Of a stretch of DNA of 64,000 nucleotides, positions 9,012 through 28,568 are shown one piece after another. A model generated the notes under the pieces. The model saw only the letters and a list, made by a program, of their open reading frames with translations. It did no database searches and was not told the DNA's origin. The position numbers were made by a program, and so were the translations under genes. The DNA lies in assembly GCA_015486075.1 (NCBI GenBank), contig WFSG01000033.1, positions 61,023 to 125,022 of the forward strand, read 5' to 3'. Numbering within the stretch: the stretch's first letter is position 1; each line of letters starts with the position of its first letter. The stretch is from Deltaproteobacteria bacterium. GTDB lineage: Bacteria; Desulfobacterota; Desulfomonilia; UBA1062.

Positions 9012-9887
9012 ATGTTTGGAATAAAGGATAAAAGAGGTAATGGTAAAGAGGGGAGGTTGTATATCGTCCCCACGCCTATAGGTAATTTTGGTGATATAAG
9101 CTTGAGGGCGCTCGAGGTTCTTAAGAAAGTGGACACCATAGCATGTGAAGACTCGAGAAGGACCAGAAAGCTACTCTCCCACTTCAATATTACCAAACCC
9201 CTGATAACATACGAGAAATTCTCGGAAGCCAGGAAGGCGGAACAGATAATAGAGGCCATTAAGACTGGTAGTAAGGTAGCCCTTGTGTGCGATGCCGGTA
9301 TGCCAGGTATAAGTGACCCAGGTTCTATACTGGTATCAAGGGCACGTTCGTATGGTATAAGGGTGGAGGCATTACCGGGTCCAAGCGCCCTTGTGACAGC
9401 CCTTGCAGGATGCGGCTATACTGGTCCCTTTAGGTTCCTTGAGTTTTTTCCTAGGAAAAGATCCTTTCGCATGAGGGAGATTGCAAGGATGGCAGTAAGC
9501 AGAGATCTGGTTGTATTCTACGAGTCCCCAAGAAGAGTTGTGAGTACATTAAAATCCATAAGGGATGTAATAGGTGATCGAGAGGTATGCGTGGCAAGGG
9601 AAGTCTCTAAGCTTTACGAGGAGTACATATCAGGTCCTCTATCCGATGTGATATCAAGGCTGGAGAGAGAACCAGTAAGGGGAGAGATCACGGTTATTGT
9701 GCGGGGAAGTGAACCCATTGATGAGGTAGATGAGTCATTCGTTGCGGAAAAGGCTAGGGAATTAATGGCAAAGGGTTATACAAGGAGGGATATAATAGAT
9801 ATATTAGCCGGCGAGATAGGATATACAAAGACTAAGGTATACGATCTCTTAATTAAAATGGCCGAGCAAGGAGAGAATCAAGGCTAA
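9012..9887 (+). CDS. rsmI: 16S rRNA (cytidine1402-2'-O)-methyltransferase
   Basis: LYIVPTPIGN, ACEDSR, DAGMPGISDPG, FYESPRR, AREVSKLYEE, RGEITV. Confidence 0.95.
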   Translation: MFGIKDKRGNGKEGRLYIVPTPIGNFGDISLRALEVLKKVDTIACEDSRRTRKLLSHFNITKPLITYEKFSEARKAEQIIEAIKTGSKVALVCDAGMPGISDPGSILVSRARSYGIRVEALPGPSALVTALAGCGYTGPFRFLEFFPRKRSFRMREIARMAVSRDLVVFYESPRRVVSTLKSIRDVIGDREVCVAREVSKLYEEYISGPLSDVISRLEREPVRGEITVIVRGSEPIDEVDESFVAEKARELMAKGYTRRDIIDILAGEIGYTKTKVYDLLIKMAEQGENQG

Positions 9888-9912
9888 AGTATATGGTGTA
9901 ACCTGACGATAA
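9885..9912 (+). promoter_or_regulatory. Sigma28 (FliA)-like promoter
   Basis: TAAAG-N15-GACGATAA, 32 nt upstream of ATG 9945. Confidence 0.6.
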
Positions 9913-9944
9913 GATGAATGTAATTCTAACCTGGAGGGAACGAG

Positions 9945-10217
9945 ATGAGGATAAACCCCGATATGTCAAGTAATATAATAGGAGTTACTAAAAAGGACAG
10001 TGAGAAGAAACCAGGAAAGCTCCACGGGTCGCCCGGGGAGAGACATGATAAGGTTTATGACAAGGTCAAGGTAGAAAATAAGTATGCAGCTAATGTCCAT
10101 GTTGACGGTGTTGACGAGGCAAAAGATATCCTTTCAAACATTGTTAATGAACTTCCATCGAGTAACAAAGATCTGCATAATCTCGACGTACACAGGCTTA
10201 TAGGTCTTTTTCAGTAG
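9945..10217 (+). CDS. 90-aa hypothetical protein resembling the flagellin C-terminal (D0) segment
   Basis: GGAGGG RBS. ENKYAANVHVDGVDEA and HNLDVHRLIGLF match the flagellin C-terminal pattern ENxxAAxxxIxDxDxA ... NxxxxxxLxLL. Confidence 0.6.
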   Translation: MRINPDMSSNIIGVTKKDSEKKPGKLHGSPGERHDKVYDKVKVENKYAANVHVDGVDEAKDILSNIVNELPSSNKDLHNLDVHRLIGLFQ

Positions 10218-10239
10218 AAATTATCGTTGTGCGTGAGAT

Positions 10240-11304
10240 TCATTGATTGTCCTCAATCGATCTCTGGGCATACATGTTTCTTATTCTGTCAAGCCTTCTC
10301 CTGAGCTCGGGTACCAATATCCTAGATGGATCAGGGGGTTTTCTGATAAACAGATAATAGTCCTCACCAATGTAAGGCCCTTCTATTGCCCCCGTGTAAT
10401 GACGTGCAGTTACATCTGATACGCTCAATATGGCCAGCTCCCTTGTTATATCAGGCACATCTTTTGCTGTATCCCTTAGTGGCCAGAACATGGGCCAGTG
10501 ATGTACCTCAATGCATTTGCATACGTTTTCAGGAATATTCCATTTCCTTGCCAACATGGCGCCTAGGCGGGCATGGTCAATTCCGAATAAATCGATCTCC
10601 TGCCTTATCCTGGCCCTTGGATCTTCTGGTATGTTTTCCTTTTCCTGCTGGGAGATATTCTTGTGTAAGGTGTTTCTCCCTATGTCGTGCATCATTGCCA
10701 TGGTAACAAGTGTGCCGGCATTCGATGCCATGCCTATTGAATTTGAGATATACGCTGCAATTATTGAAGTGATGTAGGCATGGAACCACTCGGAGCGTGA
10801 CGGTCTTATACCAGACTTGTTCATACTTTCCTCAATGACTATCCTTGATACCTCGGCTGAACCTAGGAGAACAACTGCGTTAAAGATGTTGTCGACCTTT
10901 TGTACCAAGCCGTAGAAAGGGGAATTTGCCCTCTGAAGTACGAAGGATGTAAGCCCTTGGTCAGACGCTATAAGCTGCCCTATGTCTTTTGCACTTACCT
11001 CAGGGGCATTGAGCTTGTATATGAGCTCCGTAACCAATGGTGATACCCCCTCGCTTACCCCTACAAGTTCAGGTACGGTGTCTGGAAGATAAGAATTTAC
11101 TTTTCTCTCAGGTCTCCAGTCTAGTTTGTAGGCGTCTTTTAATGAGGCGATCTCATCTTCTGTGGGTGTTTCTAGGAAACGTGCAGGTGCCTTGTTTAAC
11201 CTTGGCTTGTTTACTTTCTGTTTCCTAATTCTCCACAGGAGCAGGACCGTGAGCACGCATAGCAGTACGTACAGTAATATACCCGTGAGTTCGTACACTC
11301 CCAT
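10240..11304 (-). CDS. HDOD-domain protein with N-terminal transmembrane anchor
   Basis: DQGLTSFVLQRANSPFYG, AVVLLG, MMHDIG, IDHARLGAMLARKWNIP. Hydrophobic N-terminus. Confidence 0.88.
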   Translation of the reverse strand: MGVYELTGILLYVLLCVLTVLLLWRIRKQKVNKPRLNKAPARFLETPTEDEIASLKDAYKLDWRPERKVNSYLPDTVPELVGVSEGVSPLVTELIYKLNAPEVSAKDIGQLIASDQGLTSFVLQRANSPFYGLVQKVDNIFNAVVLLGSAEVSRIVIEESMNKSGIRPSRSEWFHAYITSIIAAYISNSIGMASNAGTLVTMAMMHDIGRNTLHKNISQQEKENIPEDPRARIRQEIDLFGIDHARLGAMLARKWNIPENVCKCIEVHHWPMFWPLRDTAKDVPDITRELAILSVSDVTARHYTGAIEGPYIGEDYYLFIRKPPDPSRILVPELRRRLDRIRNMYAQRSIEDNQ

Positions 11305-11311
11305 AAAGGGG

Positions 11312-11339
11312 ATATCGTTATTTCTAAAACTTATCTTGA
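11312..11339 (-). promoter_or_regulatory. Sigma28-like promoter (putative leaderless)
   Basis: Minus strand TCAAG-N15-AACGATAT, ending 7 nt before ATG 11304. No SD present. Confidence 0.45.
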
Positions 11340-11347
11340 GGCGGTTG

Positions 11348-13540
11348 CTAGATGTGGCTAGGCATTATAGGAATGCCCTCGAAAGGTTCCCTGAATATGA
11401 GTGGAAAAACATCCAAGACATTATTTGCGTATAGAATCTCAGCTGCAATAGACCTGTCTTTTAGCATGCGCTCCAGGTCAGGCCTGTTCTTGGCAGGGAG
11501 AATAATGCGTTTTAAATTGCTCCTTACACCAGCCAAAACCTTTTCCTTTATGCCACCAACAGGTAGTATCCTACCGCTCAGCGTTACTTCGCCTGTGATT
11601 GCTGTATCGTTCCTAATGGGTCTCCCTGTTAACAGGGAGACAAGTGCGCAAAGCATTGCAAGACCTGCAGATGGACCGTCTTTGGATATAGCACCCATGG
11701 GTACATGTATATTGATGTCAATCTTGGAGAAATCCGCTTCTATGCCCAGCATATTGGCATTGCTCTTGATGTAACCAAGGGCTATCCTTGCAGATTCCTG
11801 CATGATCGTACCCATGTTGCCGGTAAGTTCCAGTTTGCCGCTTCCAGAGCTATGCGATGATTCTATAATCAGTATTTCTCCTCCTGCCTGGGTCCATGCA
11901 AGACCTGTGGATATGCCCACCCTGTCATCTTCAAGCGCGTTCTGCCTGAAACGGGTTGCAGGTCCTAGGAACTCCTTTACAGTACTCCTGTCCACCTTTT
12001 TAGGAACGACCTCTCCCGAGGCCTTTTTCCTGGCAAGCTTGCGGTAGACTGACTCTATTTTCTTCTCAAGTCCCCTTACACCTGCTTCCATGGTGTAGTC
12101 ACCTATGATGGTCTTTATTGCATTATCAGTGAATACTGGATCATGCTTTTCAAACCCCACGGCCTTGGCCTTTTTCGGCACCAGGTGTAGCTTTGCTATC
12201 TGTAATTTCTCTTCTTCGGTATAGCCTGATATCTCTATGACCTCCATCCTGTCGAGAAGGGTGGGTAATATGGTTTCCGTTGTATTGGCCGTGGCTATGA
12301 ACATGACCTTAGACAGGTCAAACGGTATCTCTAAATAGTTATCCTTAAAAGAGAAGTTTTGCTCGGGGTCTAGGATCTCCAGGAGGGCTGATGCTGGATC
12401 ACCCCTGAAATCCTTGCCAACCTTGTCGATCTCGTCAAGTACGAACACAGGGTTGTTTGAACCGCATCTCTGTATCTCCTTTATGATCCTACCAGACATC
12501 GCACCTATGTATGTACGCCTGTGACCCCTTATTTCAGCTTCGTCTCGTATGCCTCCAAGGGATATGCGTACGTAGCGCCTGCCCATGGCTTCTGCAATGC
12601 TCTTACCAAGGGATGTCTTTCCTACACCGGGTGGTCCACTAAAACACAATATAGACCCCTTCGCCACTGGATTTAACTTTTTGACTGCCAGGAATTCTAG
12701 TATGCGTTCCTTTACATCATTTAGGTCAAAATGGTCGCGGTCAAGTATAGCCTTTGCCCGTGGTATGTCTATATCATCCTGCGTACTGTCCTCCCATGGC
12801 ATGTCGAGGACAAATTCTACGTAACCCCTGCACACTGAATATTCAGGAGATGAAGGATGAATGAACCTTAGCTTGCCCATCTCCTTTTCAATCACCATCC
12901 TTACATCTTCTGGCAAAGAGGTATGTTCTATTCTTTCCTCTAGGTCTTTTATGTCCTCAATGAAAGGATTGCCCGTTTTAAGGGACAAATTTCTGCCTGT
13001 TCTTGTACTTTGCTTGTTTATGAAGGAAAAGAGGAGCTTTAACCTAGCCATGCTATCGGGCGTGTTCAGCAACTTGGACTTTTCCACTAGGCCCAAATTC
13101 AGAGAGCTGGCCACCATGTCCGTGAACTGGCCCGGGTGTTTTATCTTGGATACGCTACTTCCCCCTGGCAGCAGCAACCTGACAAGTGCCTTTATACCCT
13201 GCATCAGTCCGTCGTTGATAAGGTTCTTTTCATACACGTCAGGCATGTCCACTAAATCAACGAATCCTTGTACAGCATCAAGGCTTTCCTTTGCCCTGAC
13301 GCGGCATATGCCTTCCAGGGATACAGATGTATCACTATACTCATTTACAACGCACCTGATACCTATATCATCTATTCTGACCGGTTGCCGGAAGAAGATG
13401 GCTATCTCGTAAACCCCAGAGATATCGGGTATAGCTATTCTTTTTCTGTCGATCGTGAAGATGTTTCCAGGTAAGTACACGTTATCTTCTATTACAAGTA
13501 CGTACATGGCTTTTATTGGCCTCTTGCCTATATTATACAT
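11348..13540 (-). CDS. lon: ATP-dependent Lon protease (paralog with divergent N-domain)
   Basis: GPPGVGKTS Walker A, LDEIDK, RRTYIGAM, KDGPSAG catalytic Ser, GGIKEK catalytic Lys. Start may be 13507. Confidence 0.95.
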   Translation of the reverse strand: MYNIGKRPIKAMYVLVIEDNVYLPGNIFTIDRKRIAIPDISGVYEIAIFFRQPVRIDDIGIRCVVNEYSDTSVSLEGICRVRAKESLDAVQGFVDLVDMPDVYEKNLINDGLMQGIKALVRLLLPGGSSVSKIKHPGQFTDMVASSLNLGLVEKSKLLNTPDSMARLKLLFSFINKQSTRTGRNLSLKTGNPFIEDIKDLEERIEHTSLPEDVRMVIEKEMGKLRFIHPSSPEYSVCRGYVEFVLDMPWEDSTQDDIDIPRAKAILDRDHFDLNDVKERILEFLAVKKLNPVAKGSILCFSGPPGVGKTSLGKSIAEAMGRRYVRISLGGIRDEAEIRGHRRTYIGAMSGRIIKEIQRCGSNNPVFVLDEIDKVGKDFRGDPASALLEILDPEQNFSFKDNYLEIPFDLSKVMFIATANTTETILPTLLDRMEVIEISGYTEEEKLQIAKLHLVPKKAKAVGFEKHDPVFTDNAIKTIIGDYTMEAGVRGLEKKIESVYRKLARKKASGEVVPKKVDRSTVKEFLGPATRFRQNALEDDRVGISTGLAWTQAGGEILIIESSHSSGSGKLELTGNMGTIMQESARIALGYIKSNANMLGIEADFSKIDINIHVPMGAISKDGPSAGLAMLCALVSLLTGRPIRNDTAITGEVTLSGRILPVGGIKEKVLAGVRSNLKRIILPAKNRPDLERMLKDRSIAAEILYANNVLDVFPLIFREPFEGIPIMPSHI

Positions 13541-13612
13541 ATTGGATGCCTGTTATCAAGGAGATCTGCTTAATCTTCCAATAAGGCCATATCGACAATA
13601 AAAGGTAACAAC

Positions 13613-13640
13613 TAAAGTAACCCCCGTGCATTACCGAGAA
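13613..13640 (+). promoter_or_regulatory. Sigma28-like promoter (putative leaderless)
   Basis: TAAAG-N15-ACCGAGAA, ending 8 nt before ATG 13649. Confidence 0.45.
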
Positions 13641-13648
13641 AGCTGACT

Positions 13649-14548
13649 ATGGATGGCGAAATAAATAGGCCCATGGAGGAGACAAGAAAACATATTCTTG
13701 ATACCCTGGACAAGGCGCAGGAGATCCTGACCCTACCGTCTGTCATACAAAAGGTTCTAGAGATAACAAGCAGTAGGAACAGTTCCGTATCAGAACTAAA
13801 GGATATTATAGAAAGTGATCCAGCGCTTACGACCAGAATACTATCCGTTGCAAACTCGGCGTACTATGGCTTTGTAAGGAAGGTGTCAACGGTAAGTCAT
13901 GCCGTTGTGGTGCTTGGCTTTGAAGAGATAAAAAACATTGTTCTTAGCATGAGTGTACTCAGGCTCTTTGACAGAAAGGGATCCGTCTTCGTGGAAAACC
14001 TGTGGAGGCATAGTTTGGCAGTAGCAGTTGCCACTAGGATGGTGGCCAGTCATCTTGGGCTTAAACTGGAAGGCAAATATTTTGTTGGGGGGCTTCTCCA
14101 CGATATAGGTAAGATATTTCTCTACCAGTACATGCCTGAGGTATACCGTGTGCTCTTGAAAGAGATGTTAAGCCAAGACAATAACTACACATACCACAGG
14201 TTGGAAGCCCTTATCTGTGGTATATCACACGAGGAGATAGGTGGTAGACTCCTCAATTCCTGGGGCTTTCCCATTGATATCACAGATGCAGTGAAGTACC
14301 ATCACAGGCCAGGGCTTGCCTTAAAAGACAAGGTCTTTACAGTATGCATACACATTGCGGACATCCTGTGCAGTATAAAGGGAATTACACCCCTAAAGGA
14401 TCATTTCTTTCTACCTGTGGATAGGGATATACTGGATGTCCTATACTCGTTGAAGGAAAACTTCGCTACGGACGACATGATCCATCTCCTTGAGAGACTT
14501 GATCTTGAAATAGAAAGACACAGCAGCTTTGTTACCATGTTCAGGTGA
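13649..14548 (+). CDS. HDOD-domain protein
   Basis: LTLPSV, SDPALTTRILSVANSAYYG, LWRHSLAVA, GLLHDIGK, SHEEIG..LLNSWGFP. Confidence 0.92.
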   Translation: MDGEINRPMEETRKHILDTLDKAQEILTLPSVIQKVLEITSSRNSSVSELKDIIESDPALTTRILSVANSAYYGFVRKVSTVSHAVVVLGFEEIKNIVLSMSVLRLFDRKGSVFVENLWRHSLAVAVATRMVASHLGLKLEGKYFVGGLLHDIGKIFLYQYMPEVYRVLLKEMLSQDNNYTYHRLEALICGISHEEIGGRLLNSWGFPIDITDAVKYHHRPGLALKDKVFTVCIHIADILCSIKGITPLKDHFFLPVDRDILDVLYSLKENFATDDMIHLLERLDLEIERHSSFVTMFR

Positions 14549-14648
14549 TACATGTATGCTTGAGTTTCCGTGCAGGATATGTGCATGGAGAAAGATTCTA
14601 AGACTACCATGTTTGAGTGGAATAAGTAATAAGGTATATAGGGAGGCT

Positions 14649-15275
14649 ATGATAAAAGCAAAGACCATACTTCTTGATGTAGACTACACCCTGTATCCTA
14701 GGGGTACAGGACCCTTTAGAGAGGTAAGCAGAAGGATCGAAAAATACGTGGTATCTACGCTCTCATTAGGCCTGAAGGAGGCAAGAGAACTCAGAATGTC
14801 CTACATATCTAGGTATGGATCGACCCTGGGTGGACTTATGCATGAGCACGGGGTAGATCCAGATGAATTTCTCAGGTATGTACATGATGTACCTGTAGAG
14901 GACCTGTTGTCTCCTGATGAAAAACTAAGGAACATACTTGAAAACTTACCTTATAACCTGGTGATTTTTTCAAACGCCTCGAGGGATTATGTTGAAAGGG
15001 TATTGAGGCATCTTGGTGTAGCAGATCTAATGGGTGTTATGTTTACAATAGAATCAATGGATTTTATTCCCAAGCCAAGGAAGTATCCATACCACAAGGT
15101 AATGGATATCCTTGATGCAAGACCTGAAGATTTAATAATAGTTGATGACATGGTAGCAAATGTCTCAACTGCACTGAAGATGGGTATGGCAGGTATTCTA
15201 GTAGGGGCATCGGCTATGCCTAGTGGAGCGTTCTCCATACACGATATCTACGATATTGTCAGTGTGATTCCCTAG
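14649..15275 (+). CDS. HAD-superfamily pyrimidine 5'-nucleotidase-like hydrolase
   Basis: LLDVDYTLY, RYGSTLGGL, IFSNA, PKP, IVDD. Start at ATG 14649 behind GGGAGG. Confidence 0.88.
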   Translation: MIKAKTILLDVDYTLYPRGTGPFREVSRRIEKYVVSTLSLGLKEARELRMSYISRYGSTLGGLMHEHGVDPDEFLRYVHDVPVEDLLSPDEKLRNILENLPYNLVIFSNASRDYVERVLRHLGVADLMGVMFTIESMDFIPKPRKYPYHKVMDILDARPEDLIIVDDMVANVSTALKMGMAGILVGASAMPSGAFSIHDIYDIVSVIP

Positions 15276-15351
15276 GGTATCACATGATAGCGGCCTGAAG
15301 ATCCAAAGTCTTTACATGCTTTCTCTGTTTACATACCCTCGATAGAATATC

Positions 15352-16557
15352 CTAGGGCCAAGTCGTGATAAGCCTCTTTAGTAATGTATATCCTTCTTTT
15401 ATGAATATCCCTGTATCTTGTGCCTGTCTTTCTGAGAATTCTCGTGCGCTATCCTTAACATCCGTGCTGTCGTAAATCACGAACGGTACAGGATCCGCGG
15501 TATGTGTTCTCAGTACGAGTGGCGTTGGATGGTCAGGTAACAGCAGGCATCTGAAGTCTGTATCCATGGCCTCCATGCCCTTGAGAATATTACCCACGAT
15601 GAGTCGATCAAAATTCTCTATCGCTAGTATCTTTTCCTTGAGAAGCCCTGCATGACCTGCCTCGTCAGGTGCTTCAACGTGCACATAAACCATGTCCAGT
15701 CTTTTGAGCGCATCTAAGGCTGCCTCTGCTTTGCCTTGGTAGTTTGTGTCTATCCAACCAGTTGCACCTGGTACATTAATTACCTCCATTCCTCTTAGTA
15801 TACCAAGCCCTTTCATGAGATCCACAGCTGATATCATTGCACCGGTAATATTGTATTCCTGTTCGATGGTTGGTACCTTCATGGATCTTCCCTGTCCCCA
15901 GGGCCATATGGCAGTGGCTTCTCTCTTCCCCTGTCTTCTTCTTTTCAGGTTTATGGGATGGTCTTTCAAAACACCCATGGATTCGTGAATGAGTCCCTTG
16001 ATGAAATCGTCGTCAGGGAGATAACCCTCTACAAAGTCTCCTATTATGTCATGAGGCGGGGTAGTTTTAAGGTTGTCTTTTTCATAATCTTTTACCAGCA
16101 TTAGGTGACGATAGTCAATTCCCGGAAAGAGCTGTATGTTCCTGTACCTGGGTTCCATATTTTTCTTAAGGCTTGCTATCAGGATTGAGGCCTCTTCGGT
16201 AGATATATGGCCTGCACTGTAATCCTCCATTATAAGACCTTCGTCCCTTGGGCTCAGTGTGACCAGGTTTGTACGAAAGGCCATATCGTTGTCTCCTAGC
16301 TTTACTCCCATGCTGACTGCTTCTATTGGAGCACGCCCCGTGTAATACAGACCAGGATCCAGACCCATTACTGCCATGTTGGCAACATCACTGCCTGGCG
16401 GGAACCCTGGCTTGACTGTTCTAACCATACCGAGTTCTCCCCTTGATGCAAGGTAATCCATGTACGGGGTATTTGCGGCTTCAAGGGGTGTTTGGCCACC
16501 CAGTTCATCCACTGGTCTATCGGCCATGCCGTCACCGAGCAGTATGATTATCTTCAA
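15352..16557 (-). CDS. apgM: Cofactor-independent phosphoglycerate mutase family (ApgM; 'proposed homoserine kinase' subfamily)
   Basis: LGDGMADRP, PGSDVAN, YTGRAPIEA, HVEAPDEAGH, LPDHPTP...HT.DPVPF. Lies downstream of hom. Confidence 0.9.
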   Translation of the reverse strand: MKIIILLGDGMADRPVDELGGQTPLEAANTPYMDYLASRGELGMVRTVKPGFPPGSDVANMAVMGLDPGLYYTGRAPIEAVSMGVKLGDNDMAFRTNLVTLSPRDEGLIMEDYSAGHISTEEASILIASLKKNMEPRYRNIQLFPGIDYRHLMLVKDYEKDNLKTTPPHDIIGDFVEGYLPDDDFIKGLIHESMGVLKDHPINLKRRRQGKREATAIWPWGQGRSMKVPTIEQEYNITGAMISAVDLMKGLGILRGMEVINVPGATGWIDTNYQGKAEAALDALKRLDMVYVHVEAPDEAGHAGLLKEKILAIENFDRLIVGNILKGMEAMDTDFRCLLLPDHPTPLVLRTHTADPVPFVIYDSTDVKDSAREFSERQAQDTGIFIKEGYTLLKRLITTWP

Positions 16558-17284
16558 TGTAGTCCCTCCCTTTCTCGAACTTGTTGTACGGGTAGATCTT
16601 GTCTATTGGCGTATCCCTGTGATTCGAGATCACGATGTCACCTATGAGGTAATTGGGCCTTCTGGCCTTTTTTATCCTATCCCTCTCCTCCATGAGCCAT
16701 GCAATCCCTGCAAGGTCTCCAGCTATTTCTTCCTTTACCATGCTTTTGCAATACTCCACCTCTTCTGCAGTTACAAATTCTATTATACCACCGGCAATAT
16801 TCATTACCTGTTGAGCATCCTCGTGAATGGTCTTTATTCTATCCTTGATGTAAACGCCGACTATTATGGGCATCCCTTCTATGGTTCCCTCGCTTACAAG
16901 GTCTGCATAACCCATTGAGAGTCCTGTGAAGACCGTCTGGGAGACGAGTGTTATGATGTGGATGCTAGGCTGATGCCCCAGCTCTTTTACAACCTCTGCA
17001 GCAATACCTGCATAGGACTCAACCATGTAAGGCCTGGGCTCGTTTACAAAACCCGTGTTGTCATCCAGTACCAGTCTCCTAGCATGCCTTATATCAATAG
17101 GGCCTTCTTCTATTTTTTCGTCCTTTATGACAAAGATACTATTATCCTTTTCCAATACAAACTTTCTAAACCCTTCCCTTTTTAACCTTTCCATGGCAAA
17201 CTCTGTTCCCCTGAGCCAGAGGTCCTCTGTGTGTAAATATACCGTGGAGTTGTGGTGACTTATATTATCAAGTCTGGTTAACAT
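16532..17284 (-). CDS. Degenerate threonine synthase (ThrC)-like protein lacking the PLP-binding lysine
   Basis: Colinear similarity to the short ThrC (LTRLDNI..VYLHTE; RGTEFAMERLKREG; FVNEPRPYMVES..IAAEVVKELG; MPIIVGV; AGGIIEFVTAEEV). Sits between hom and apgM and overlaps both. Confidence 0.7.
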   Translation of the reverse strand: MLTRLDNISHHNSTVYLHTEDLWLRGTEFAMERLKREGFRKFVLEKDNSIFVIKDEKIEEGPIDIRHARRLVLDDNTGFVNEPRPYMVESYAGIAAEVVKELGHQPSIHIITLVSQTVFTGLSMGYADLVSEGTIEGMPIIVGVYIKDRIKTIHEDAQQVMNIAGGIIEFVTAEEVEYCKSMVKEEIAGDLAGIAWLMEERDRIKKARRPNYLIGDIVISNHRDTPIDKIYPYNKFEKGRDYIEDNHTAR

Positions 17285-20619: not shown

Positions 20620-20947
20620 CCAGTGAGGAAGCCTGCTGTTCTCCCGTGTTTTCCTGCTTTCTGACGATTGATTGCCTTTGTTTATTGTGAAGTGCCTCCC
20701 TTTTCTCGACTTCCTTCAAGCGTTCACTTACCAGGCGTTCCTTTTGTTTCATTTCCTTTCGTACTAGTAGATTGTAAATGAATGCAATTATAGATCCTGT
20801 TACAAATGAGATAAAGAGAATAAGGTAGAGTGGATATTCAGCTGTGGCATGTCCAAGAAACTTGAGACTCACAGGTTGTTGGTTGGATACACCAAAGAGA
20901 ATCCCGATGGTAATTATTATTATCAGCAAGAAGGCCTTTATGTACAT
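20606..20947 (-). CDS. LapA-family small membrane protein
   Basis: Two TM helices with the F..SNQQPV.LKFL...EYPLYLILFISF..G pattern. TGATG coupling at 20947. Confidence 0.75.
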   Translation of the reverse strand: MYIKAFLLIIIITIGILFGVSNQQPVSLKFLGHATAEYPLYLILFISFVTGSIIAFIYNLLVRKEMKQKERLVSERLKEVEKREALHNKQRQSIVRKQENTGEQQASSLVEKE

Positions 20948-21414
20948 CAAGATAATGATCCCTTTATCTTTTCCTTTGTTTTCTCTATATGCTCGGATAT
21001 CATGTGCACATCTGCAAGTACAGGCATAAAATTGGTATCCCCTGTCCACCTCGGTACTATATGTACATGAAGGTGATCAGCAAAGCCAGCTCCAGCTACT
21101 TTGCCAAGGTTGCAACCTATGTTGAAACCTTGTGGTTTTAGGCATTCCTTTATTGCTGAGACAAGTTCCTTTACCATGGTAAATATTTCGTGCATCTCCT
21201 GTTCATCCAGGTCATCGAGGTTACCAACATGCCTGTACGGTGCCACCATGCAGTGTCCTGTTGTATAAGGATACCGATTCATTATTGAGAAGCAAGTCTT
21301 ACCCCTTTTGAGTATAAGGCTATCATTGTCCTTTGGCGCGTTGCAGAATATGCAGGCTAACTCCTTTGATTTTGATATGTATTCGGCTCTCCATGGTGCC
21401 CATAGGTTTCTCAT
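20947..21414 (-). CDS. HIT-family hydrolase (Ap4A hydrolase-like)
   Basis: LWAPWR, CIFC, NRYPY..GH, GAG..DHLHVHIVPRW.GD.NF. Confidence 0.93.
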   Translation of the reverse strand: MRNLWAPWRAEYISKSKELACIFCNAPKDNDSLILKRGKTCFSIMNRYPYTTGHCMVAPYRHVGNLDDLDEQEMHEIFTMVKELVSAIKECLKPQGFNIGCNLGKVAGAGFADHLHVHIVPRWTGDTNFMPVLADVHMISEHIEKTKEKIKGSLS

Positions 21415-21899
21415 AATACAATTAACTCTCCACGTACTTTCTTATTGTTTACATATATTATACCTATTGAATTTTCTTTTGTAAATCTTGTATCTGTTGG
21501 GGAGCCGGGGTTGAAGAAGAGTATACCGTCCTCAACCTGGTTGAAGGCTTGGTGCGTATGTCCATAGACTATTACATCTACATCCTTAAATTCACGTTTT
21601 ATCCTGTCTCTTATACCAACCGGAGATCCCCAGCCGTGTATAATGCCTATTGAGATATCACCTATCTTGAGTACCTGTTTAGGTGGGAAAGAGGCTGTGA
21701 TATCAACATGGTCCATGTTACCAGAGACAACAACCATGTCCTTGCCCAGTTTGTAGAACACGTCCAAAACACTTAGGCTAACCACGTCTCCTGCATGGAT
21801 TATGAGGTCTGCATCTGAGAAATAATCCCTTGATATTTCTCTTAAAAAGTCGTTAGCCTGCATAAGGTGAGTATCGGAAACCACCCCTATTTTCTTCAT
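21411..21899 (-). CDS. YfcE/MJ0936-family metallophosphoesterase
   Basis: VVSDTH, IHAGD, VSGNMD, IHG, YGHTH, NPGS. Start moved to ATG 21899. Confidence 0.92.
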   Translation of the reverse strand: MKKIGVVSDTHLMQANDFLREISRDYFSDADLIIHAGDVVSLSVLDVFYKLGKDMVVVSGNMDHVDITASFPPKQVLKIGDISIGIIHGWGSPVGIRDRIKREFKDVDVIVYGHTHQAFNQVEDGILFFNPGSPTDTRFTKENSIGIIYVNNKKVRGELIVL

Positions 21900-22129
21900 A
21901 CAGGATAAAGACCATATGAGGAGTAGATTTTCAACAGGGAATAAGGCCAGAATGATTTTTAGACCCTGCAGGCCATCTGAAAGCATATACTCAGTGTGCA
22001 ATTGGCCTATTGATGTCTTTTTCGTGGTTCTCTTGACATCTCAAGTATGTCTGTGAGATGGAAGACATGAAAATATTTTAAGGTAAAAACAAAAAATCCC
22101 GGACTCTGGGAAATAGCTTGGGGTGTTGA

Positions 22130-22897
22130 ATGCTTTATCCACATATAAATCCAGTGCTTGTACATTTAGGGCCTTTTCAGATACGTTGGTATGGTCTCAT
22201 GTATGTGGTGGGTTTTGTGCTTGCCTACATGATAATGGTCAGAACGGCAAGACGCAAGAGATACAACCTCACCAGGGAGGATATAGAAGACCTTCTTACC
22301 TATTGTATTATAGGGTTGATACTTGGAGCAAGACTTGGTTATTGCCTTGTATATAATACCCTTTACTACTGGCATAATCCCCTTGAGATCGTGGCTGTGT
22401 GGGAAGGGGGCATGTCTTTTCACGGTGGTCTTGTAGGCGTACTTGTCTCTGGCTGGATCTACTCTGTAAAGCGGAATAAGTCATTCTGGATGCTGGCCGA
22501 CCTTGGTGCAATTGCAGCTCCCCTTGGGCTTTTTTTTGGCAGGATAGGGAACTTTATCAACGGTGAGCTCTATGGCAGGGTGACCCACATGCCATGGGGC
22601 ATGGTCTTCCCTGGGGCTGGTCCCTATCCACGTCATCCCTCACAGCTTTACGAAGCCTTCTTTGAAGGCGTTGTCCTGTTTCTCATTATTTACCGGATAA
22701 GCAAGCGCAGGCTACCACATGGTGTTATCTTCTGCTGTTTTCTCGTGGCCTATGGGACAATAAGGTTTTTTTTAGAATTTTTCAGGGAACCAGACCCTCA
22801 GTTAGGTTTTATACTGGGTCCGTTTACCATGGGTCAACTCCTATGTTCTATAATGATAATATTCGGTATGTTACTTTTACAAAGCAGGTTAAAGTAG
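22130..22897 (+). CDS. lgt: Prolipoprotein diacylglyceryl transferase
   Basis: IRWYG, GARLGY, GGMSFHGG, GRIGNFINGELYGR, RHPSQLYE, RF..EFFREPD. Confidence 0.97.
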   Translation: MLYPHINPVLVHLGPFQIRWYGLMYVVGFVLAYMIMVRTARRKRYNLTREDIEDLLTYCIIGLILGARLGYCLVYNTLYYWHNPLEIVAVWEGGMSFHGGLVGVLVSGWIYSVKRNKSFWMLADLGAIAAPLGLFFGRIGNFINGELYGRVTHMPWGMVFPGAGPYPRHPSQLYEAFFEGVVLFLIIYRISKRRLPHGVIFCCFLVAYGTIRFFLEFFREPDPQLGFILGPFTMGQLLCSIMIIFGMLLLQSRLK

Positions 22898-22927
22898 TAT
22901 CACCCATGGAGCGATAGGTTATATTAC

Positions 22928-24841
22928 ATGAGAGATCTTAAAGAAGAGCTCATGAGAGGGCTCCGTTCATTCAGGCAGTTTAACCGTTACAAGCAGGCGA
23001 TGATGTTAAATAATGATCCTGTGGGTGGCAGGGTTGTGCTTAAGATCATGCCGTTATTACTGCACATTAATCATCCCGAGTTTCCAGGTTATATAGACAA
23101 CGCAGGGTGTCCCGGCGGAATAAAGCTCATGGAATGGCCCGCCGATGCCCTTGGAATAGTCGAGCCAGTTCTGGCAAGAAGGATACAGGAGAGAAACCTC
23201 AAGGATTACATCCCAAAGCATAGAGAGATAGAGGGCGTCTTTACAATAGGAAGCGTTGGTAGCATAGGGCAGACAGGAGATTCTGATTACGACATATGGA
23301 TTATAGTAAACGAGAGCCTAATTGGTAGGACCAGGCTAAGGCTCCTTGAATCAAAGCTGAATCTTTTAAGACGCTGGATTGTCAATCGTTTTTTAATAGA
23401 TATACATTTCTTCTTAATGGATGCGGAACATGTTAGAAAGAATGCATTTGGAAAGGTATCTCAGGAAGGTTCCGGCTCTGCACTGAAGACCCTGCTCAAA
23501 GAGGAGTTCTACCGTACAATGACCCTGGTTGAGGGCAGGATACCTCTGTGGTGGATAGTGCCTCCATTCACGGATGATCTTACCTATCAGGCATGCCTAG
23601 ACCTTGTAAGGACTATACCAGGTATTACTGCCGATGACTTCATGGACCTTGGTAACATTACAAGTGTTCCTGAGAGAGAACTCTTGGGTGCAGCCCTTTG
23701 GCAGATGCACAAGGCATTGGATGACCCCTTTAAATCTGTCTTAAAGATGGCGCTGGTATCTACTTACATGGATTATACTTTCATGGTTAAGCTCCTGTGT
23801 GATGTGCTCAAGGAGAAGATATTCAATGCCGGTCCAGAGGATATAGTCGATCCATATGCAGTAGCATTCAAGCGTATAGAAGAGTTCTATGGACGTAGTA
23901 CCGAAAAAGGTGTCGTTGACCTTTTGAGACGTTGCTTCTACCTAAAGGTCAGTCCGGGCATAAAGGACATGGACCTAATAAGACTAGAAGGCAGTGACAA
24001 GTCTCTTATCATGGTTCAAATACTAAGGGAATGGGGATGGAGCCTTAATACGGTGAAGGACCTTAATGGCTTTAACAACTGGGATGTCAGTAGATATCGC
24101 ATGTTTGGAGACGAGATACACGAGTATCTAAAAGCTACAGCTGCACAACTTATACGAAGGGCAAGAAGGAATTTGCTCAGTACCAGCATTGATGAAGACG
24201 TGGAGATGGAAGTTCTGAGAAGACGGGTAGAAGCATTCTATGTGGCAAAGGACAACAAGATACTACCGGAGAAAAGGGTGAAAAAGAATGAGCCGGCATA
24301 TAGGGAGCTCTTCTTCATGTATGACATGGGCAAGTGGAAACTCTTTTCGTCTTCGCCATCGGAGAGAACCGAGGAACAGCAGGGGCCCATACTGCAGGCG
24401 GAGAGGATTGTTACAATTGCCGCCTGGCTGGTTTACAACAGGAGGTTCGACCCATCCACTGCCTTTCACATGGTACCCAATACAACCCACGTGGTTCTAT
24501 CGGATATACAGTCGCTTCTCATAGAACTCCGTGTAGGCATACCGGATGTATACAGAATCGGTCTTAACAGAGATGCTTTGATGGTCCCAAGTTCCATTGA
24601 GCGCATATGGATAGTACCAAACATGGAAGCAAGCAAGGAAAAACACGCTGTTGATGAGATAGATATTATATATTCAAACACCTGGAACGAGCTATTCTCC
24701 CTTTATGTTTTACCCAGGGATCTAAAGACATGGCTGGCAAAGGTAAAAGCTGGTAACAAGGCGGTAGACATAAAAATATGGCTCCCCCAGGCCGAGGATT
24801 CCAAACAGCTTGCAAGATCTCTGATCTCTCTGATAGTATAG
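22928..24841 (+). CDS. cyaA: Class I adenylate cyclase
   Basis: GSVGSIGQTGDSDYDIW, HFFLMD, GSA...LLKEEFYRT, GR.PLWW, D.G, WQ..KA..DPFKSVLK. Confidence 0.85.
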   Translation: MRDLKEELMRGLRSFRQFNRYKQAMMLNNDPVGGRVVLKIMPLLLHINHPEFPGYIDNAGCPGGIKLMEWPADALGIVEPVLARRIQERNLKDYIPKHREIEGVFTIGSVGSIGQTGDSDYDIWIIVNESLIGRTRLRLLESKLNLLRRWIVNRFLIDIHFFLMDAEHVRKNAFGKVSQEGSGSALKTLLKEEFYRTMTLVEGRIPLWWIVPPFTDDLTYQACLDLVRTIPGITADDFMDLGNITSVPERELLGAALWQMHKALDDPFKSVLKMALVSTYMDYTFMVKLLCDVLKEKIFNAGPEDIVDPYAVAFKRIEEFYGRSTEKGVVDLLRRCFYLKVSPGIKDMDLIRLEGSDKSLIMVQILREWGWSLNTVKDLNGFNNWDVSRYRMFGDEIHEYLKATAAQLIRRARRNLLSTSIDEDVEMEVLRRRVEAFYVAKDNKILPEKRVKKNEPAYRELFFMYDMGKWKLFSSSPSERTEEQQGPILQAERIVTIAAWLVYNRRFDPSTAFHMVPNTTHVVLSDIQSLLIELRVGIPDVYRIGLNRDALMVPSSIERIWIVPNMEASKEKHAVDEIDIIYSNTWNELFSLYVLPRDLKTWLAKVKAGNKAVDIKIWLPQAEDSKQLARSLISLIV

Positions 24842-24884
24842 TGTCGGCTAGTGGACCTTGATCAGATGTCTCCAGGGGGCTTAA

Positions 24885-25721
24885 ATGCATGGAAGTATCC
24901 TGAAAGTAGGAATATGCCAGTTAAGGACAACCTATGACATAGAGAAAAACATGTCTAGGGCTATTGAGATGACAAGTGATGCCGCGCGCCTAGGCGCAGA
25001 CATAGTTGCGCTACCAGAGATGTTTCTATGTCCTTACGAGCCGGATCACATAAAGAAGTCAATGGCCTTTGCCAGCAGAGCCCTTGAGGGGCTTAGAAAA
25101 TCTGCCCTGGAGCACGGCATATACATTGTAGCAGGAAGCCTTCCTTACACCCGGCATGGTGGTAAACCCTTTAATAGGTCCTTCGTATTTGATACAGGGG
25201 GTAGGGTTGTATGTTTTCATGACAAGCTTCACCTGTTCGACTGTGAGCCGCCAGGAGGACCAGTTGTAAGGGAGTCTGATATAATCAAGGAGGGGCATCA
25301 CCTGGATACTTTCATGACCCCGTGGGGTATGGCTGCTGTCATTGTTTGCTATGATATCAGGTTCACGCCCCTTTTACAGCTGCTAGCAGACCGTGGAGTT
25401 GTCCTGTTGTTTGTTCCTGCGGCGTTTTCTATCACCACTGGGAGGGCACATTGGGAGATGCTTGTTAGGCTGAGGGCAGTAGAAATCCAGGGGTTTGTCG
25501 TTGGTATACAGCCTGCCTATGACCCTGGGCTGAAGTATGTACCCTGGGGACATTCAATAGTGGCAAATCCATGGGGAGACGTGCTTATGGATGCTGGTAA
25601 GGAAGAGGTGGTAGAGGTCGTGGACATAGACATGGAAGATGCTGGAAGGATAAGAGGATCTTTCCCATTACTTGATCATCGTAGGTTGGATCTGTACTCC
25701 ACGGAGTGGCGGGACAACTGA
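24885..25721 (+). CDS. Carbon-nitrogen hydrolase (nitrilase/omega-amidase family)
   Basis: ALPEMF, HDKLHLFD, VCYDIRF catalytic triad, PAAF...TG..HW, GHS...PWG. Confidence 0.92.
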   Translation: MHGSILKVGICQLRTTYDIEKNMSRAIEMTSDAARLGADIVALPEMFLCPYEPDHIKKSMAFASRALEGLRKSALEHGIYIVAGSLPYTRHGGKPFNRSFVFDTGGRVVCFHDKLHLFDCEPPGGPVVRESDIIKEGHHLDTFMTPWGMAAVIVCYDIRFTPLLQLLADRGVVLLFVPAAFSITTGRAHWEMLVRLRAVEIQGFVVGIQPAYDPGLKYVPWGHSIVANPWGDVLMDAGKEEVVEVVDIDMEDAGRIRGSFPLLDHRRLDLYSTEWRDN

Positions 25722-26470
25722 TGATAAGGATAGATAAATTAAGCAAGTCTTTCAGGGACATGAGGGTACTTGACAGGATATCATTGGATATACCGGATGG
25801 GGAGATAACCGTTATAATAGGCCCTAGCGGTACAGGAAAGAGCGTACTTCTAAAACATATCCTTGGACTTATGAGACCGGATTCAGGTAGCGTGTTCATA
25901 GATGACAGGGATATATCAGCTATGAAGGAGAAAGACCTGAACGAGATCAGGAAGCATCTTGGAGTATGCTTCCAGGACGCCGCATTATTTGACTCCATGA
26001 CAGTGGGAGAAAACATAGCCTTTCCTTTCCGTGTACACACGAGGCTTTCGGAGGAGGAAATCATGTCGAGGGTCTCGGAACTCCTGAAAGAGGTGGGGCT
26101 GTCCGGCATTGAAGACAAGATGCCCTCGGAGATATCCGGTGGCATGAGAAAAAGGGTTGGGCTTGCCAGGGCACTTGCATTGAATCCGAGGATACTGTTG
26201 TTCGACGAGCCCACCACTGGCCTTGATCCTGTTATGAGCACGGCCATAAATTTGCTTATACGGCAGGTTCAAAAAAAGTCCGGTGCCACCTGTCTGGTGA
26301 TAAGCCATGACATAAAGGGTGCATTTGAGATAGCAGATTACATGGCCATGCTTTACAAGGGAAAGATTGTGTTCTCCGGCAGGCCAGTCGACTTTAACAA
26401 TGCTCAGGAACCACTGGTAAGGCAGTTTATAGATGGAAGGACAGATGGTCCTATCAACCCTAATGAATAA
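25721..26470 (+). CDS. ABC transporter ATP-binding protein, MlaF/Mkl-like
   Basis: GPSGTGKS, FQDAALFDSMTV.ENIAF, ISGGMRKRVGLARA, FDEPTTGLDP, SHD. Confidence 0.9.
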   Translation: MIRIDKLSKSFRDMRVLDRISLDIPDGEITVIIGPSGTGKSVLLKHILGLMRPDSGSVFIDDRDISAMKEKDLNEIRKHLGVCFQDAALFDSMTVGENIAFPFRVHTRLSEEEIMSRVSELLKEVGLSGIEDKMPSEISGGMRKRVGLARALALNPRILLFDEPTTGLDPVMSTAINLLIRQVQKKSGATCLVISHDIKGAFEIADYMAMLYKGKIVFSGRPVDFNNAQEPLVRQFIDGRTDGPINPNE

Positions 26471-26575
26471 TATAATAGAAAGGTCTCGGGGTAAGATAAT
26501 TTACCTTGTATTTGTTGACACTTGCCGATAAGGTTTACAGGATTTTTAGATAACTGTACGCTAGGAGATGTAAAT

Positions 26576-26980
26576 ATGGGAAAAAGAGGTTTTACCTTGG
26601 TAGAGCTGATGATTGTTGTGGCCATAATAGGTATACTGGCCTCGATTGCCATACCGCTTTACACAGGTCATGTTAAGAAGGCAAGGAGGGCAGGCGCAAT
26701 ATCGTCCCTGCAGACAGTGGCCCTCTACGAGGAGAAGTGTATGGCAGAGAAGGGAACCTACACCTCTGTTGCTGCACTGGAGAATAGCTTTGGCATGACT
26801 AACCCTGATACTGAGTATTATACGATAAGTCTCTTTTATCTCTCCAACACGTCTTTTATTGCCCAGGCTACGCCCAAGGGTAGTCAGGCTGGAGACGCCA
26901 CGCTAGCCATTGATTCCCAGGGTCGGCTGGGAAAGATAACTTCAGGTAGCTTTGTCGAGGACAAGAGCCTGTGGAGATAG
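26576..26980 (+). CDS. Type IV pilin-like protein (PilE-type)
   Basis: Class III signal KRG|FTLVELMIVVAIIGILASIAIP.Y. GGAG RBS before ATG 26576. Confidence 0.9.
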   Translation: MGKRGFTLVELMIVVAIIGILASIAIPLYTGHVKKARRAGAISSLQTVALYEEKCMAEKGTYTSVAALENSFGMTNPDTEYYTISLFYLSNTSFIAQATPKGSQAGDATLAIDSQGRLGKITSGSFVEDKSLWR

Positions 26981-26984
26981 ATTC

Positions 26985-27962
26985 ATGAATGTCCTTGTAA
27001 CAGGTGGAGCAGGGTACATAGGTTCTCACGCGGTGAAGATGCTTTGCGATAAGGGTTACGGCGTTGTTTGTCTTGATAACCTTGTAAAAGGACACAGGGA
27101 AAACGTAATTGGTGGAATCTTTTACGAGGGAGGGGTGGAAGACAAGGACCTTGTGAGGGATATATGCACCAGGCATGAAATCAAGGCTGCCATGCATTTT
27201 GCAGCGTATTCCCTTGTTGGCGAATCAGTGGAGATACCCATTCTCTATTATGAAAACAACGTGTGTAACACCCTGAACCTGATAGATGCACTGATGGATA
27301 TGGGTGTAAAGAATTTCATATATTCCTCTTCCGCGGGTGTGTACGGTGAACCCATGAAAGTACCCATAACAGAGGATGCCCAGTGTGTGCCAACTAATCC
27401 CTATGGGAGGACCAAGTTTTACGTGGAGGGTATACTTAGAGATCTGGATAAAGCGCGTGGTCTGAACTACGTGTCTTTAAGGTATTTTAACGCGGCAGGG
27501 GCATATCCTGATGGTACCATAGGTGAAGACCATGATCCCGAGACACACCTCATTCCCATAGTTCTGGATGTTGCCCTTGGAAGGAGGGGGTCTGTAACCA
27601 TATTCGGAAACGACTGGCCCACGAGGGATGGTACATGCATAAGGGATTACGTTCATGTCTGTGACCTTATAGATGCCCATATCCTTGCCCTTGAATACCT
27701 CCTGGCTGGTGGAAAGAGCAAGGTCTTTAATCTTGGTAATTCAAAGGGCTACACCGTGAGAGAGGTTATAGAAACGGTTTCAGACGTAACCGGCAAGGAC
27801 ATCTGTGTAGAGGTGGGACCAAGGCGTTTAGGCGATCCGGCAATACTAGTTGCAAGTTCTGAGAAGATAAAGAAAGAACTGGGATGGATGCCTAAGTGGA
27901 CATCTTTAAAAGATATTGTAGAGACGGCATGGAAATGGCACAGGATAAGATTTGAACGCTAG
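26985..27962 (+). CDS. galE: UDP-glucose 4-epimerase
   Basis: VLVTGGAGYIGSH, HFAA...VGESV, YGRTK, LRYFNAAGA, RDYVHV.DL, FNLG...G. Confidence 0.95.
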   Translation: MNVLVTGGAGYIGSHAVKMLCDKGYGVVCLDNLVKGHRENVIGGIFYEGGVEDKDLVRDICTRHEIKAAMHFAAYSLVGESVEIPILYYENNVCNTLNLIDALMDMGVKNFIYSSSAGVYGEPMKVPITEDAQCVPTNPYGRTKFYVEGILRDLDKARGLNYVSLRYFNAAGAYPDGTIGEDHDPETHLIPIVLDVALGRRGSVTIFGNDWPTRDGTCIRDYVHVCDLIDAHILALEYLLAGGKSKVFNLGNSKGYTVREVIETVSDVTGKDICVEVGPRRLGDPAILVASSEKIKKELGWMPKWTSLKDIVETAWKWHRIRFER

Positions 27963-27972
27963 TTAAATCCTT

Positions 27973-28000
27973 TAAAGGTAAGGGGCTAATAAGGCGATAA
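27973..28000 (+). promoter_or_regulatory. Sigma28-like promoter (putative leaderless)
   Basis: TAAAG-N15-GGCGATAA, ending 7 nt before ATG 28008. No SD present. Confidence 0.55.
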
Positions 28001-28007
28001 ATGAATT

Positions 28008-28568
28008 ATGAATGCTAGATCCTCTACGTTCATGGTGATTGTTTTTACTGCTGTCGTAGCAACGGCATGTGTGCATGTGGATGGTGATATCAGCCTTACA
28101 ATGGAAGGTTGTTCAGACAGGATCGCGAGAGATATTGCTAGGCACGCGATAAAAGAAGATAGACAAATGGGCAGGGCGCTAGTAGCAAGCCCGGTGGATG
28201 CCGTAAGCCTGAGTGCGGGAAAGCTAGGCATCTCTATGCAGGAATTGCTTACAGATGCAATGGTGGCTACCGGGATACACGTCGTTGACGTGGAATTAAG
28301 GGATAGGCCCATTATAAAGAAAGGATCGGGGATTATTTGCCTATCGAGGAACAAGAATAGGCTAAAAAAAGAACTTGCCAAGGCCGACTTTGTTTTAGTG
28401 ACCACGTATATAGTTGGCACTAGAAAGGTTGTATTCACATCAAGACTTGTGGACTTAAAAACAGGCAGCATAATTGCCTCGAGTACTAGGAGTGTTTATA
28501 GATCGTCATCTGTGGATGCCTTGATAGATGACAGCCAAGGTGTTGAAAAGAAGCTCTATGAAAACTAG
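28008..28568 (+). CDS. FlgO-like outer-membrane lipoprotein
   Basis: Lipobox-like VATAC. Pattern 'LVASPVD...LG...QELL...G..VV..EL...G...LSR....L...AD.VLV.TY.......SRLVDL.TG.I.AS' is typical of the FlgO domain. Confidence 0.65.
   Translation: MNARSSTFMVIVFTAVVATACVHVDGDISLTMEGCSDRIARDIARHAIKEDRQMGRALVASPVDAVSLSAGKLGISMQELLTDAMVATGIHVVDVELRDRPIIKKGSGIICLSRNKNRLKKELAKADFVLVTTYIVGTRKVVFTSRLVDLKTGSIIASSTRSVYRSSSVDALIDDSQGVEKKLYEN

Follow-up and report, generated by a model that had tools for sequence, protein, structure and literature searches.

The promoter consensus of the flagellar sigma factor sigma-28 (FliA) and the existence of leaderless messenger RNAs (mRNAs) are each textbook knowledge. 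The classical FliA promoters of Escherichia coli and Salmonella have leaders that contain a Shine–Dalgarno (SD) sequence. Leaderless mRNAs are common in the phylum of Streptomyces; leaderless initiation in E. coli needs a 5′-terminal AUG, and actinobacteria tolerate GUG. Here we analyze five sigma-28-type promoters in a stretch of 64,000 nucleotides (nt) from a Deltaproteobacteria bacterium (assembly GCA_015486075.1, contig WFSG01000033.1, positions 61,023 to 125,022), referred to below as the window. Four of these promoters stand so close to a start codon that the genes behind them would be transcribed with a leader of a few nucleotides or with none at all.

Several described systems come close to this arrangement. 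A comprehensive study of FliA in E. coli mentions neither leaderless transcripts nor untranslated regions (UTRs) (PMC4183435). In Streptomyces coelicolor, the sigma-WhiG −10 box of whiH, GCCGACAA, is followed after 7 nt by GTG, and the mapped transcription start site (TSS) coincides with this codon (PMC3160421 Table 1, citing Ryding 1998). In Bdellovibrio bacteriovorus, attack-phase promoters of the form TTAAG-N16-CCGATA control many non-flagellar genes, in a study where the term "leaderless" does not appear (Karunker et al. 2013, PMC3627812). The leaderless mRNAs of Campylobacter jejuni, finally, are all driven by sigma-70 and are poorly conserved between species (PMC3847290). The preliminary description of our window, made from the letters alone, had proposed a dispersed sigma-28 regulon whose accessory genes are transcribed as leaderless mRNAs, and had remarked that leaderless translation is mostly described for sigma-70 promoters. 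The combination with a sigma-28-family promoter is nevertheless not unprecedented: whiH is the one documented case that we found (PMC3160421), and the unremarked Bdellovibrio data add 21 (PMC3627812).

Sigma-28-type promoters in the window

The window corresponds to C33:61023-125022 of a 2.30-Mb genome (code G000) that is assembled in 49 contigs and scores 100% complete. The four motifs of the preliminary description read in the sequence exactly as reported there in position, strand and N15 spacing. Site 1, TAAAG-N15-GACGATAA (9885..9912, +), has a −35 box that shares bases with the stop codon of the methylase gene before it, and it is leadered: 32 nt separate it from the ATG at 9945, with the SD sequence GGAGGG between them. 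At site 2, TCAAG-N15-AACGATAT (11312..11339, −), the −10 octamer ends 7 nt before the ATG at 11304, which opens the gene of a membrane-anchored HDOD/HD protein of 354 amino acids (aa), here TM-HDOD (10240..11304, −; Pfam HDOD, 6.5e-35). Site 3, TAAAG-N15-ACCGAGAA (13613..13640, +), carries a CCGAG variant of the −10 box and lies 8 nt before the ATG at 13649 of a soluble HDOD/HD protein of 299 aa, here HDOD-299 (13649..14548, +; Pfam HDOD, 7.6e-59). Site 4, TAAAG-N15-GGCGATAA (27973..28000, +), lies 7 nt before the ATG at 28008 of an FlgO-like lipoprotein of 186 aa (28008..28568, +; Pfam FlgO, 4.4e-19). All three genes are predicted to be leaderless.

The reported distances of 7, 8 and 7 nt at sites 2 to 4, and the lack of a clear SD sequence there, were likewise borne out on reading: the gaps CCCCTTT, AGCTGACT and ATGAATT contain no SD sequence and could not accommodate one. 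A fifth promoter, TAAAG-N15-AGCGATAG (22890..22917, +), was absent from the earlier list; it ends 10 nt before the ATG at 22928 of a class-I (CyaA-type) adenylate cyclase of 637 aa (22928..24841, +; Adenyl_cycl_N, 7.7e-47, from residue 14; Adenylate_cycl, 4.2e-48). The start codon is ATG in the three genes behind sites 2 to 4 and in the adenylate cyclase gene. Over the whole window, the pattern TMAAG-N17-CGAKA has 5 matches where 0.37 are expected, and a count of 5 was reached in 0 of 100 shuffles.

Probable sigma-28 identity of the motif

A profile search found a single FliA/WhiG-family sigma gene in the genome, at C5:243817-244494, scoring 279 bits against TIGR02479 (cut-off 189.6) and 254 bits against NF005413 (cut-off 201); the presence of fliA was one of the checks proposed at the outset. 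Genes were called with a crude home-made caller (1912 genes, longest-open-reading-frame starts), so the classification of matches as intergenic is approximate and promoters that overlap the ends of upstream open reading frames (ORFs), such as the adenylate cyclase site, are missed. Among intergenic matches to T[AC]AAG-Nx-NNCGA[TG]A with spacers of 9 to 22 nt, 20 have the N15 spacer, against 0–4 at any other length; the stricter TAAAG/CGATA version gives 12 at N15 and 0–3 elsewhere. The comparison with background that the preliminary description had called for therefore comes out far above shuffled sequence and specific to N15.

The motif also precedes flagellin, the flgM operon, FlgL, FlgO, FapA, pilus ATPases and one pilin. 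The spacer-specific enrichment, together with the occurrence of the same boxes at flagellin, the flgM operon, FlgL and FapA, indicates that the motif is real and FliA-promoter-like, and the matches are best regarded as putative FliA (sigma-28) promoters of a dispersed regulon. The flagellin promoter (C35:36157-36131, −) and that of the flgM operon (C5:236753-236779, +) have an N14 spacer and long leaders, about 134 nt for flagellin, unlike the promoter-adjacent, leaderless-type sites, all of which use N15. A type IV pilin-like gene and two genes for PilB/GspE-type ATPases (C16:19975-22759 and C18:22094-20345) have sigma-28-type promoters with ordinary leaders, which suggests shared regulation of pili and flagella in this organism.

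Distance to the start codon across the genome

The distance from promoter to start codon was then compared between N15 sites and wrong-spacer controls. At 9 of the 28 intergenic N15 sites, the ATG of an ORF of at least 80 aa lies 7, 7, 7, 7, 8, 8, 8, 10 or 10 nt past the octamer, whereas only 3 of 111 controls have such an ATG (Fisher p=2e-5). Because the match at G000:C32:90035 proved not to be a protein start, the curated count is 8 of 28 (p=1e-4 against 3/111). The other N15 sites with a start within 60 nt have it 18–47 nt away, mostly at least 23 nt, and behind a strong SD sequence where this was read. The distance histogram suggested in the preliminary description is thus bimodal, and its peak at 7–10 nt is missing from the wrong-spacer controls.

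The eight promoter-adjacent genes comprise TM-HDOD, HDOD-299 and FlgO in the window and, elsewhere, those for an HDOD-HisKA protein, FlgL, a 109-aa protein, a PAS histidine kinase and a 203-aa response regulator. With relaxed criteria the scan also picks up FapA (GTG, gap of 7 nt), a fourth HDOD protein (gap 7), and the adenylate cyclase and an HD-GYP/PAS protein (gap 10 each); in FapA and the adenylate cyclase, the Pfam domains begin 7–14 residues past the proposed starts. Four distinct HDOD proteins, at C1:2504-702 (−), at C22:54808 (−) and the two in the window, have a sigma-28 box 7–8 nt before their start, so that HDOD proteins look core to the sigma-28 regulon and not accessory to it.

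Sigma-70 promoters offer no parallel. No peak of the sigma-70 −10 element (TANNNT) was found 5–9 nt before called gene starts genome-wide, and GGAG or GAGG precedes 38% of genes. The organism thus makes ordinary use of SD sequences, its leaderless geometry is specific to sigma-28 promoters, and leaderless genes driven by sigma-70 are rare in it.

Conservation across the family

To follow the geometry through evolution, we read the upstream regions of orthologues from family-level relatives, which span 14 genera and share 35–65% protein identity. All 17 TM-HDOD orthologues have T[AC]AAG-N15-NCCGATAN (one with CCGATTA) 7–9 nt before the ATG, and in all of them an N-terminal hydrophobic or transmembrane helix follows the ATG directly. 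The HDOD-299 orthologues (L070-L082) keep a CCGAG-type −10 box 7–8 nt before the start in 13 of 13 cases, and their N-terminus begins 9–10 residues before a conserved TR..IL motif. Their start codon is GTG in 11 of the 13, with ATG only in the genus of the window, a distribution that implies initiation at leaderless GUG codons in a lineage of the Gram-negative type; GTG starts also occur in FapA and in one FlgO orthologue. The response regulator from outside the window behaves in the same way: all 20 orthologues show TAAAG/TCAAG-N15-T[TA]CGATAN at 8 nt (17 orthologues) or 7 nt (3) from an ATG placed 5–6 residues before strand beta-1. An adenylate cyclase orthologue in another genus (L104) reads TAAAG-N15-TGCGATAA-N8-ATG.

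For FlgO, 7 of 13 orthologues have the promoter 7–8 nt before ATG or GTG, and the other 6 are operonic behind GGAG(G). Such an either/or layout would be expected if the promoter-adjacent and the operonic SD-bearing arrangements are functional alternatives.

Of the 57 orthologous promoters in the four gene families, 12 have a gap of 7 nt, 35 a gap of 8 nt and 10 a gap of 9 nt. In every one of these promoter-adjacent cases (57/57), the boxes and their distance to the start are kept while the sequences of spacer and gap vary, and the conserved protein is read in the frame of the start codon; the gaps contain no usable SD sequence. The TCAAG variant of site 2 and the CCGAG variant of site 3 are conserved gene by gene across the family. 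Site 1 is also conserved, in its own layout: the 9 recognizable orthologues of the downstream ORF all keep T[ACT]AAG-N14/15-GNCGATAN 31–35 nt before the start, with an SD sequence, which makes it a conserved leadered sigma-28-type promoter.

A strict pattern search over 52 family genomes returned 189 matches at gaps of 7–8 nt against 37 at gaps of 12–13 nt, with 6–7 in each of the reversed-pattern controls. In a sample of 151 genomes from the phylum, the counts were 68 and 41. When the family was subtracted they fell to 61 and 41 (p=0.06), and for this reason we make no claim of a phylum-wide phenomenon: the promoter-adjacent architecture is pronounced in the family and not demonstrably phylum-wide.

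Where transcription and translation would start

To calibrate the expected start point, we turned to mapped sigma-28 transcripts. The C. jejuni sigma-28 motif CGATwt lies 6–8 nt upstream of the TSS (PMC3847290). For B. bacteriovorus HD100, we tabulated the 86 promoters marked "FliA yes" in Table S2 of Karunker et al. 2013 (PMC3627812) and located the octamer in 83 of them. Of these 83, 64 have +1 at 7 nt from the octamer, 14 at 6 nt and 3 at 8 nt. The TSS coincides with the annotated start (5′UTR of 0) at 21 of the 86 promoters, and six more have leaders of 2–4 nt (PMC3627812).

Given this spacing, transcription at sites 2 and 4, with their gap of 7 nt, would begin exactly at the A of the AUG; at site 3 (gap of 8 nt) it would begin at the AUG or 1 nt before it; and the adenylate cyclase gene and flgL (gap of 10 nt) would have leaders of 2–3 nt. 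The gap at site 2 (CCCCTTT) consists of pyrimidines throughout, which leaves the A of the ATG as the first purine usable for initiation; at site 4, too, the A of the ATG is the earliest purine in the expected start zone of the polymerase. By analogy, then, the Bdellovibrio 5′-end data support a leader of 0–3 nt at the promoter-adjacent genes of the window, and "leaderless" is used here in a sense in which a leader of 1–3 nt would be equally possible.

A probable sigma-28 regulon with two classes of transcript

We consider it likely that these promoters belong to a sigma-28 regulon with two classes, one leadered and one leaderless or near-leaderless. The leadered class would have leaders of 20–135 nt with a strong SD sequence and would serve abundant structural proteins: flagellin, the flgM operon, the pilus genes and the 90-aa ORF behind site 1. 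In the second class, the −10 octamer ends 7–10 nt before the start codon, and the products would be mostly signalling proteins, joined by FlgO, FlgL and FapA. Its putative members in the window are TM-HDOD, HDOD-299, flgO and the class-I adenylate cyclase (leader of 2–3 nt); elsewhere in the genome they would include FlgL, FapA, two more HDOD proteins, the response regulator, the PAS histidine kinase and an HD-GYP-type protein.

Since sigma-28 polymerase starts about 7–8 nt past the octamer, transcripts of the second class would begin at the AUG, which is GUG in many orthologues, or 1–3 nt before it. They would lack an SD sequence and hence be translated by the leaderless route. A start codon of this kind would be translated well only when it is 5′-terminal and would be poorly used inside a read-through mRNA, for example one running from the adjacent lon-like gene into TM-HDOD. 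Production of the regulators would in that case depend on mRNAs initiated by sigma-28 alone; it would be insulated from read-through and probably low. The dispersed regulon of the preliminary description thus gains from the statistics, the comparative genomics and the Bdellovibrio calibration, and its leaderless character is predicted from these three.

Several observations weigh against this two-class reading. The most widespread match in the family, TAAAG-N15-NCCGATAN-N7-ATG at G000:C32:90070-90033 (−) and its orthologues, is a conserved box with an ATG at a gap of 7 nt whose leader is nonetheless about 60 nt long: after the box, conservation is poor for about 60 nt until a conserved ftsB/divIC-like gene begins, with a pilM-like gene after it, and the proximal ATG (in the context TATG) opens an out-of-frame ORF of 45–123 aa that is not conserved (G000:C32:90070-89650; L103, L105, L106; alignment A2). 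This 5′ region gave no Rfam match when tested as a known RNA; its proximal AUG may be a leaderless upstream ORF that overlaps the real start, or a conserved +1 context. As this box has a well-placed ATG and no protein start, geometry alone can mislead, and the frame and the conservation of the N-terminus are needed as well. A second look-alike, TAAAG-N15-ACCGATAT-N7-ATG at G000:C33:136730-136767 (+), outside the window, lies inside a PmbA/TldD-like ORF (...KITDIMGMHTADPITGEF...) and was rejected as a promoter because its conservation across many genera is that of coding sequence alone; regulon counts that rely on patterns can be caught out by it. About one third of the 189 family matches are of one or the other of these two kinds, and the raw count is to that extent overstated. 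Furthermore, the modal gap among orthologues is 8 nt and the modal octamer-to-+1 distance in Bdellovibrio is 7 nt, so that many transcripts may carry a leader of 1–2 nt. Leaderless mRNAs that begin with GUG are poorly functional in E. coli. At site 3, finally, both genomes of the genus have a second in-frame ATG 24 nt further on.

Alternative explanations

This last observation leads to the alternative that survives best, which we nevertheless regard as improbable: the promoters are real, and translation begins at a downstream in-frame codon, behind short SD-less leaders of about 24 nt at sites 3 and 4. In-frame ATGs do exist at 13673 and 28032, and the two genomes of the genus show little conservation over the first eight codons of HDOD-299. 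These downstream ATGs, however, have no SD sequence before them. In 11 of the 13 HDOD-299 orthologues there is no reachable downstream start and a GTG stands 7–8 nt past the octamer, which points to 13649 as the start of the gene and led us to reject 13673. A start at 28032 was rejected in turn, as it removes the charged MNAR n-region of the FlgO signal peptide, whereas the orthologues share the layout of n-region, h-region and Cys; and a later start in the response regulator would delete strand beta-1. The possibility raised in the preliminary description, that 13673 and 28032 are the true starts, is accordingly disfavoured by orthologue geometry, by N-terminal domain boundaries and by the logic of the signal peptide.

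A second possibility is that the start codons are used mainly on transcripts initiated further upstream, and that the 3′ end of the −10 box together with the bases after it (GATAAGGA, GATAAGAG) acts as a weak SD sequence at the ideal distance of 7–9 nt, which would explain the fixed spacing. FlgL does have GCCGATAAGGAAATATATATG, with TAAGGA placed 7 nt upstream of its ATG; CCCGATAAGA stands in many TM-HDOD orthologues; and the TM-HDOD ATG lies only 43 nt past the end of lon. Yet the window sites AACGATATCCCCTTT, GGCGATAAATGAATT and ACCGAGAAAGCTGACT have no SD-like match at a usable distance, and neither do any of the 20 response-regulator promoters, in which T[TA]CGATAN is followed by 8 variable nt. 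A conserved −35 TAAAG at exactly N15 is not explained by an SD role, and FlgL itself has no co-oriented flagellar gene upstream. We therefore treat a −10 box that doubles as an SD sequence as a minor rival of quite low probability, credible only for sequences like that of FlgL (GATAAGGA).

It is very improbable that an ATG 7–8 nt past the octamer is merely the preferred initiation context of the promoter itself and overlaps ORF starts by accident. The operon of the ftsB-like and pilM-like genes described above behaves in just this manner, since it keeps TATG at a gap of 7 nt across genera with the conserved ORF about 60 nt further on. The idea was rejected because an ATG at a gap of 6–10 nt is absent from all 13 other leadered promoters of the sigma-28 type in the genome; moreover, the codon is in frame at all 57 orthologous promoters and is often GTG. 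Chance occurrence of the motifs, or their recognition by some sigma factor besides FliA, is scarcely credible: the CCGAG of site 3 and the TCAAG of site 2 do deviate from the consensus, but the enrichment is confined to a single spacer, the window has 5 matches against 0.37 expected, these same variants are conserved gene by gene, and only one FliA-family sigma gene scores above the cut-off.

Neighbouring genes in the window

The conserved 90-aa ORF behind site 1 (9945..10217, +) has no assigned family: searches of Pfam and NCBIfam gave no match, and the label "mini-flagellin-like" that it had received was not confirmed. Orthologues occur in 10 family genomes, nine of them recognizable on re-analysis. 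The ORF is a convergent neighbour of the TM-HDOD gene, an arrangement kept in at least nine genomes. Of the genes downstream of the four motifs, which the preliminary description had called plausibly motility-related, one matches Pfam FlgO, two encode HDOD/HD proteins, and the 90-aa ORF matches no family.

A gene for a Lon-like protease with a short N-terminus (11348..13540, −) lies between the two HDOD genes with sigma-28-type promoters. The same order, with lon between two HDOD genes, recurs in one relative (G008), and in another (G018) the HDOD genes are directly divergent without lon. Downstream of flgO, 8 nt past its stop codon, begins a second small lipoprotein gene (28576..29136, +) with an LLGGC lipobox (VKKKIIYTIGTVLLLLGGC...). 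It gave no match in Pfam or NCBIfam; it is probably co-transcribed with flgO, and its product may be an FlgP-like partner of FlgO.

Discussion

What appears new here is a regulon-scale, family-conserved instance of a known but barely described kind, the leaderless gene behind a sigma-28-family promoter. If confirmed, it would mean that an alternative sigma factor can employ leaderless mRNA as a conserved design throughout its regulon, in a bacterium that elsewhere initiates translation with SD sequences, and leaderless mRNAs would be more than a sporadic feature of sigma-70 promoters or an actinobacterial habit. At a practical level, it would settle the start codon for at least four genes of the window, where gene finders that reward an SD sequence would tend to shift the start downstream. 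At a biological level, the analysis describes a putative sigma-28 regulon dominated by HDOD, cyclic di-GMP and cyclic AMP signalling proteins in an uncultured sediment lineage; the promoter before the adenylate cyclase gene would place cyclic AMP synthesis in the sigma-28 programme. Since promoter and start codon together span less than 50 bp, they also offer a simple test system for the leaderless use of AUG and GUG outside model organisms.

A further step, which we put forward tentatively and consider rather unlikely, is that leaderless initiation forms a dedicated sigma-28 tier, in which the signalling genes are translatable only from sigma-28-initiated transcripts and their SD-less AUG or GUG codons are silent in read-through mRNAs. 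Were this so, protein output would depend strictly on a single sigma factor, and possibly also on a state of the ribosome in which leaderless mRNAs are favoured, a 5′-terminal GUG would be used routinely in a Gram-negative-type bacterium, and the same might hold in several other lineages with this geometry.

The comparison with known systems shows which features are shared and which are particular to this family. With the class 3 FliA promoters of E. coli and Salmonella (TAAAGTTT-N11-GCCGATAA), the present promoters share the two boxes, their spacing, the cognate FliA and late flagellar targets such as flagellin, flgM and flgL. They differ in that about one third of them abut the start codon, and in that HDOD, HD-GYP, adenylate-cyclase and two-component genes are plentiful in the regulon. 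The geometry of whiH is identical to that of the present genes, including the use of GTG. However, whiH is a single gene, whereas here 8–12 genes share the layout, conserved across a family, in an SD-using Gram-negative-type lineage without sign of sigma-70 leaderless genes. In Bdellovibrio, the leaderless share among FliA promoters is similar, 24% there and about 30% here; that organism belongs to another phylum and has other gene content (adhesins, proteases), and its start sites are experimental where ours are predicted. The sigma-70 leaderless genes of C. jejuni and Helicobacter pylori (TANNNT-N5-9-ATG) likewise have the −10 element directly before an SD-less ATG, and their orthologues alternate between promoter-adjacent and operonic SD-bearing layouts as flgO does here (PMC3847290). 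In the present family, by contrast, the promoter is of the sigma-28 type and the layout is conserved across 14 genera.

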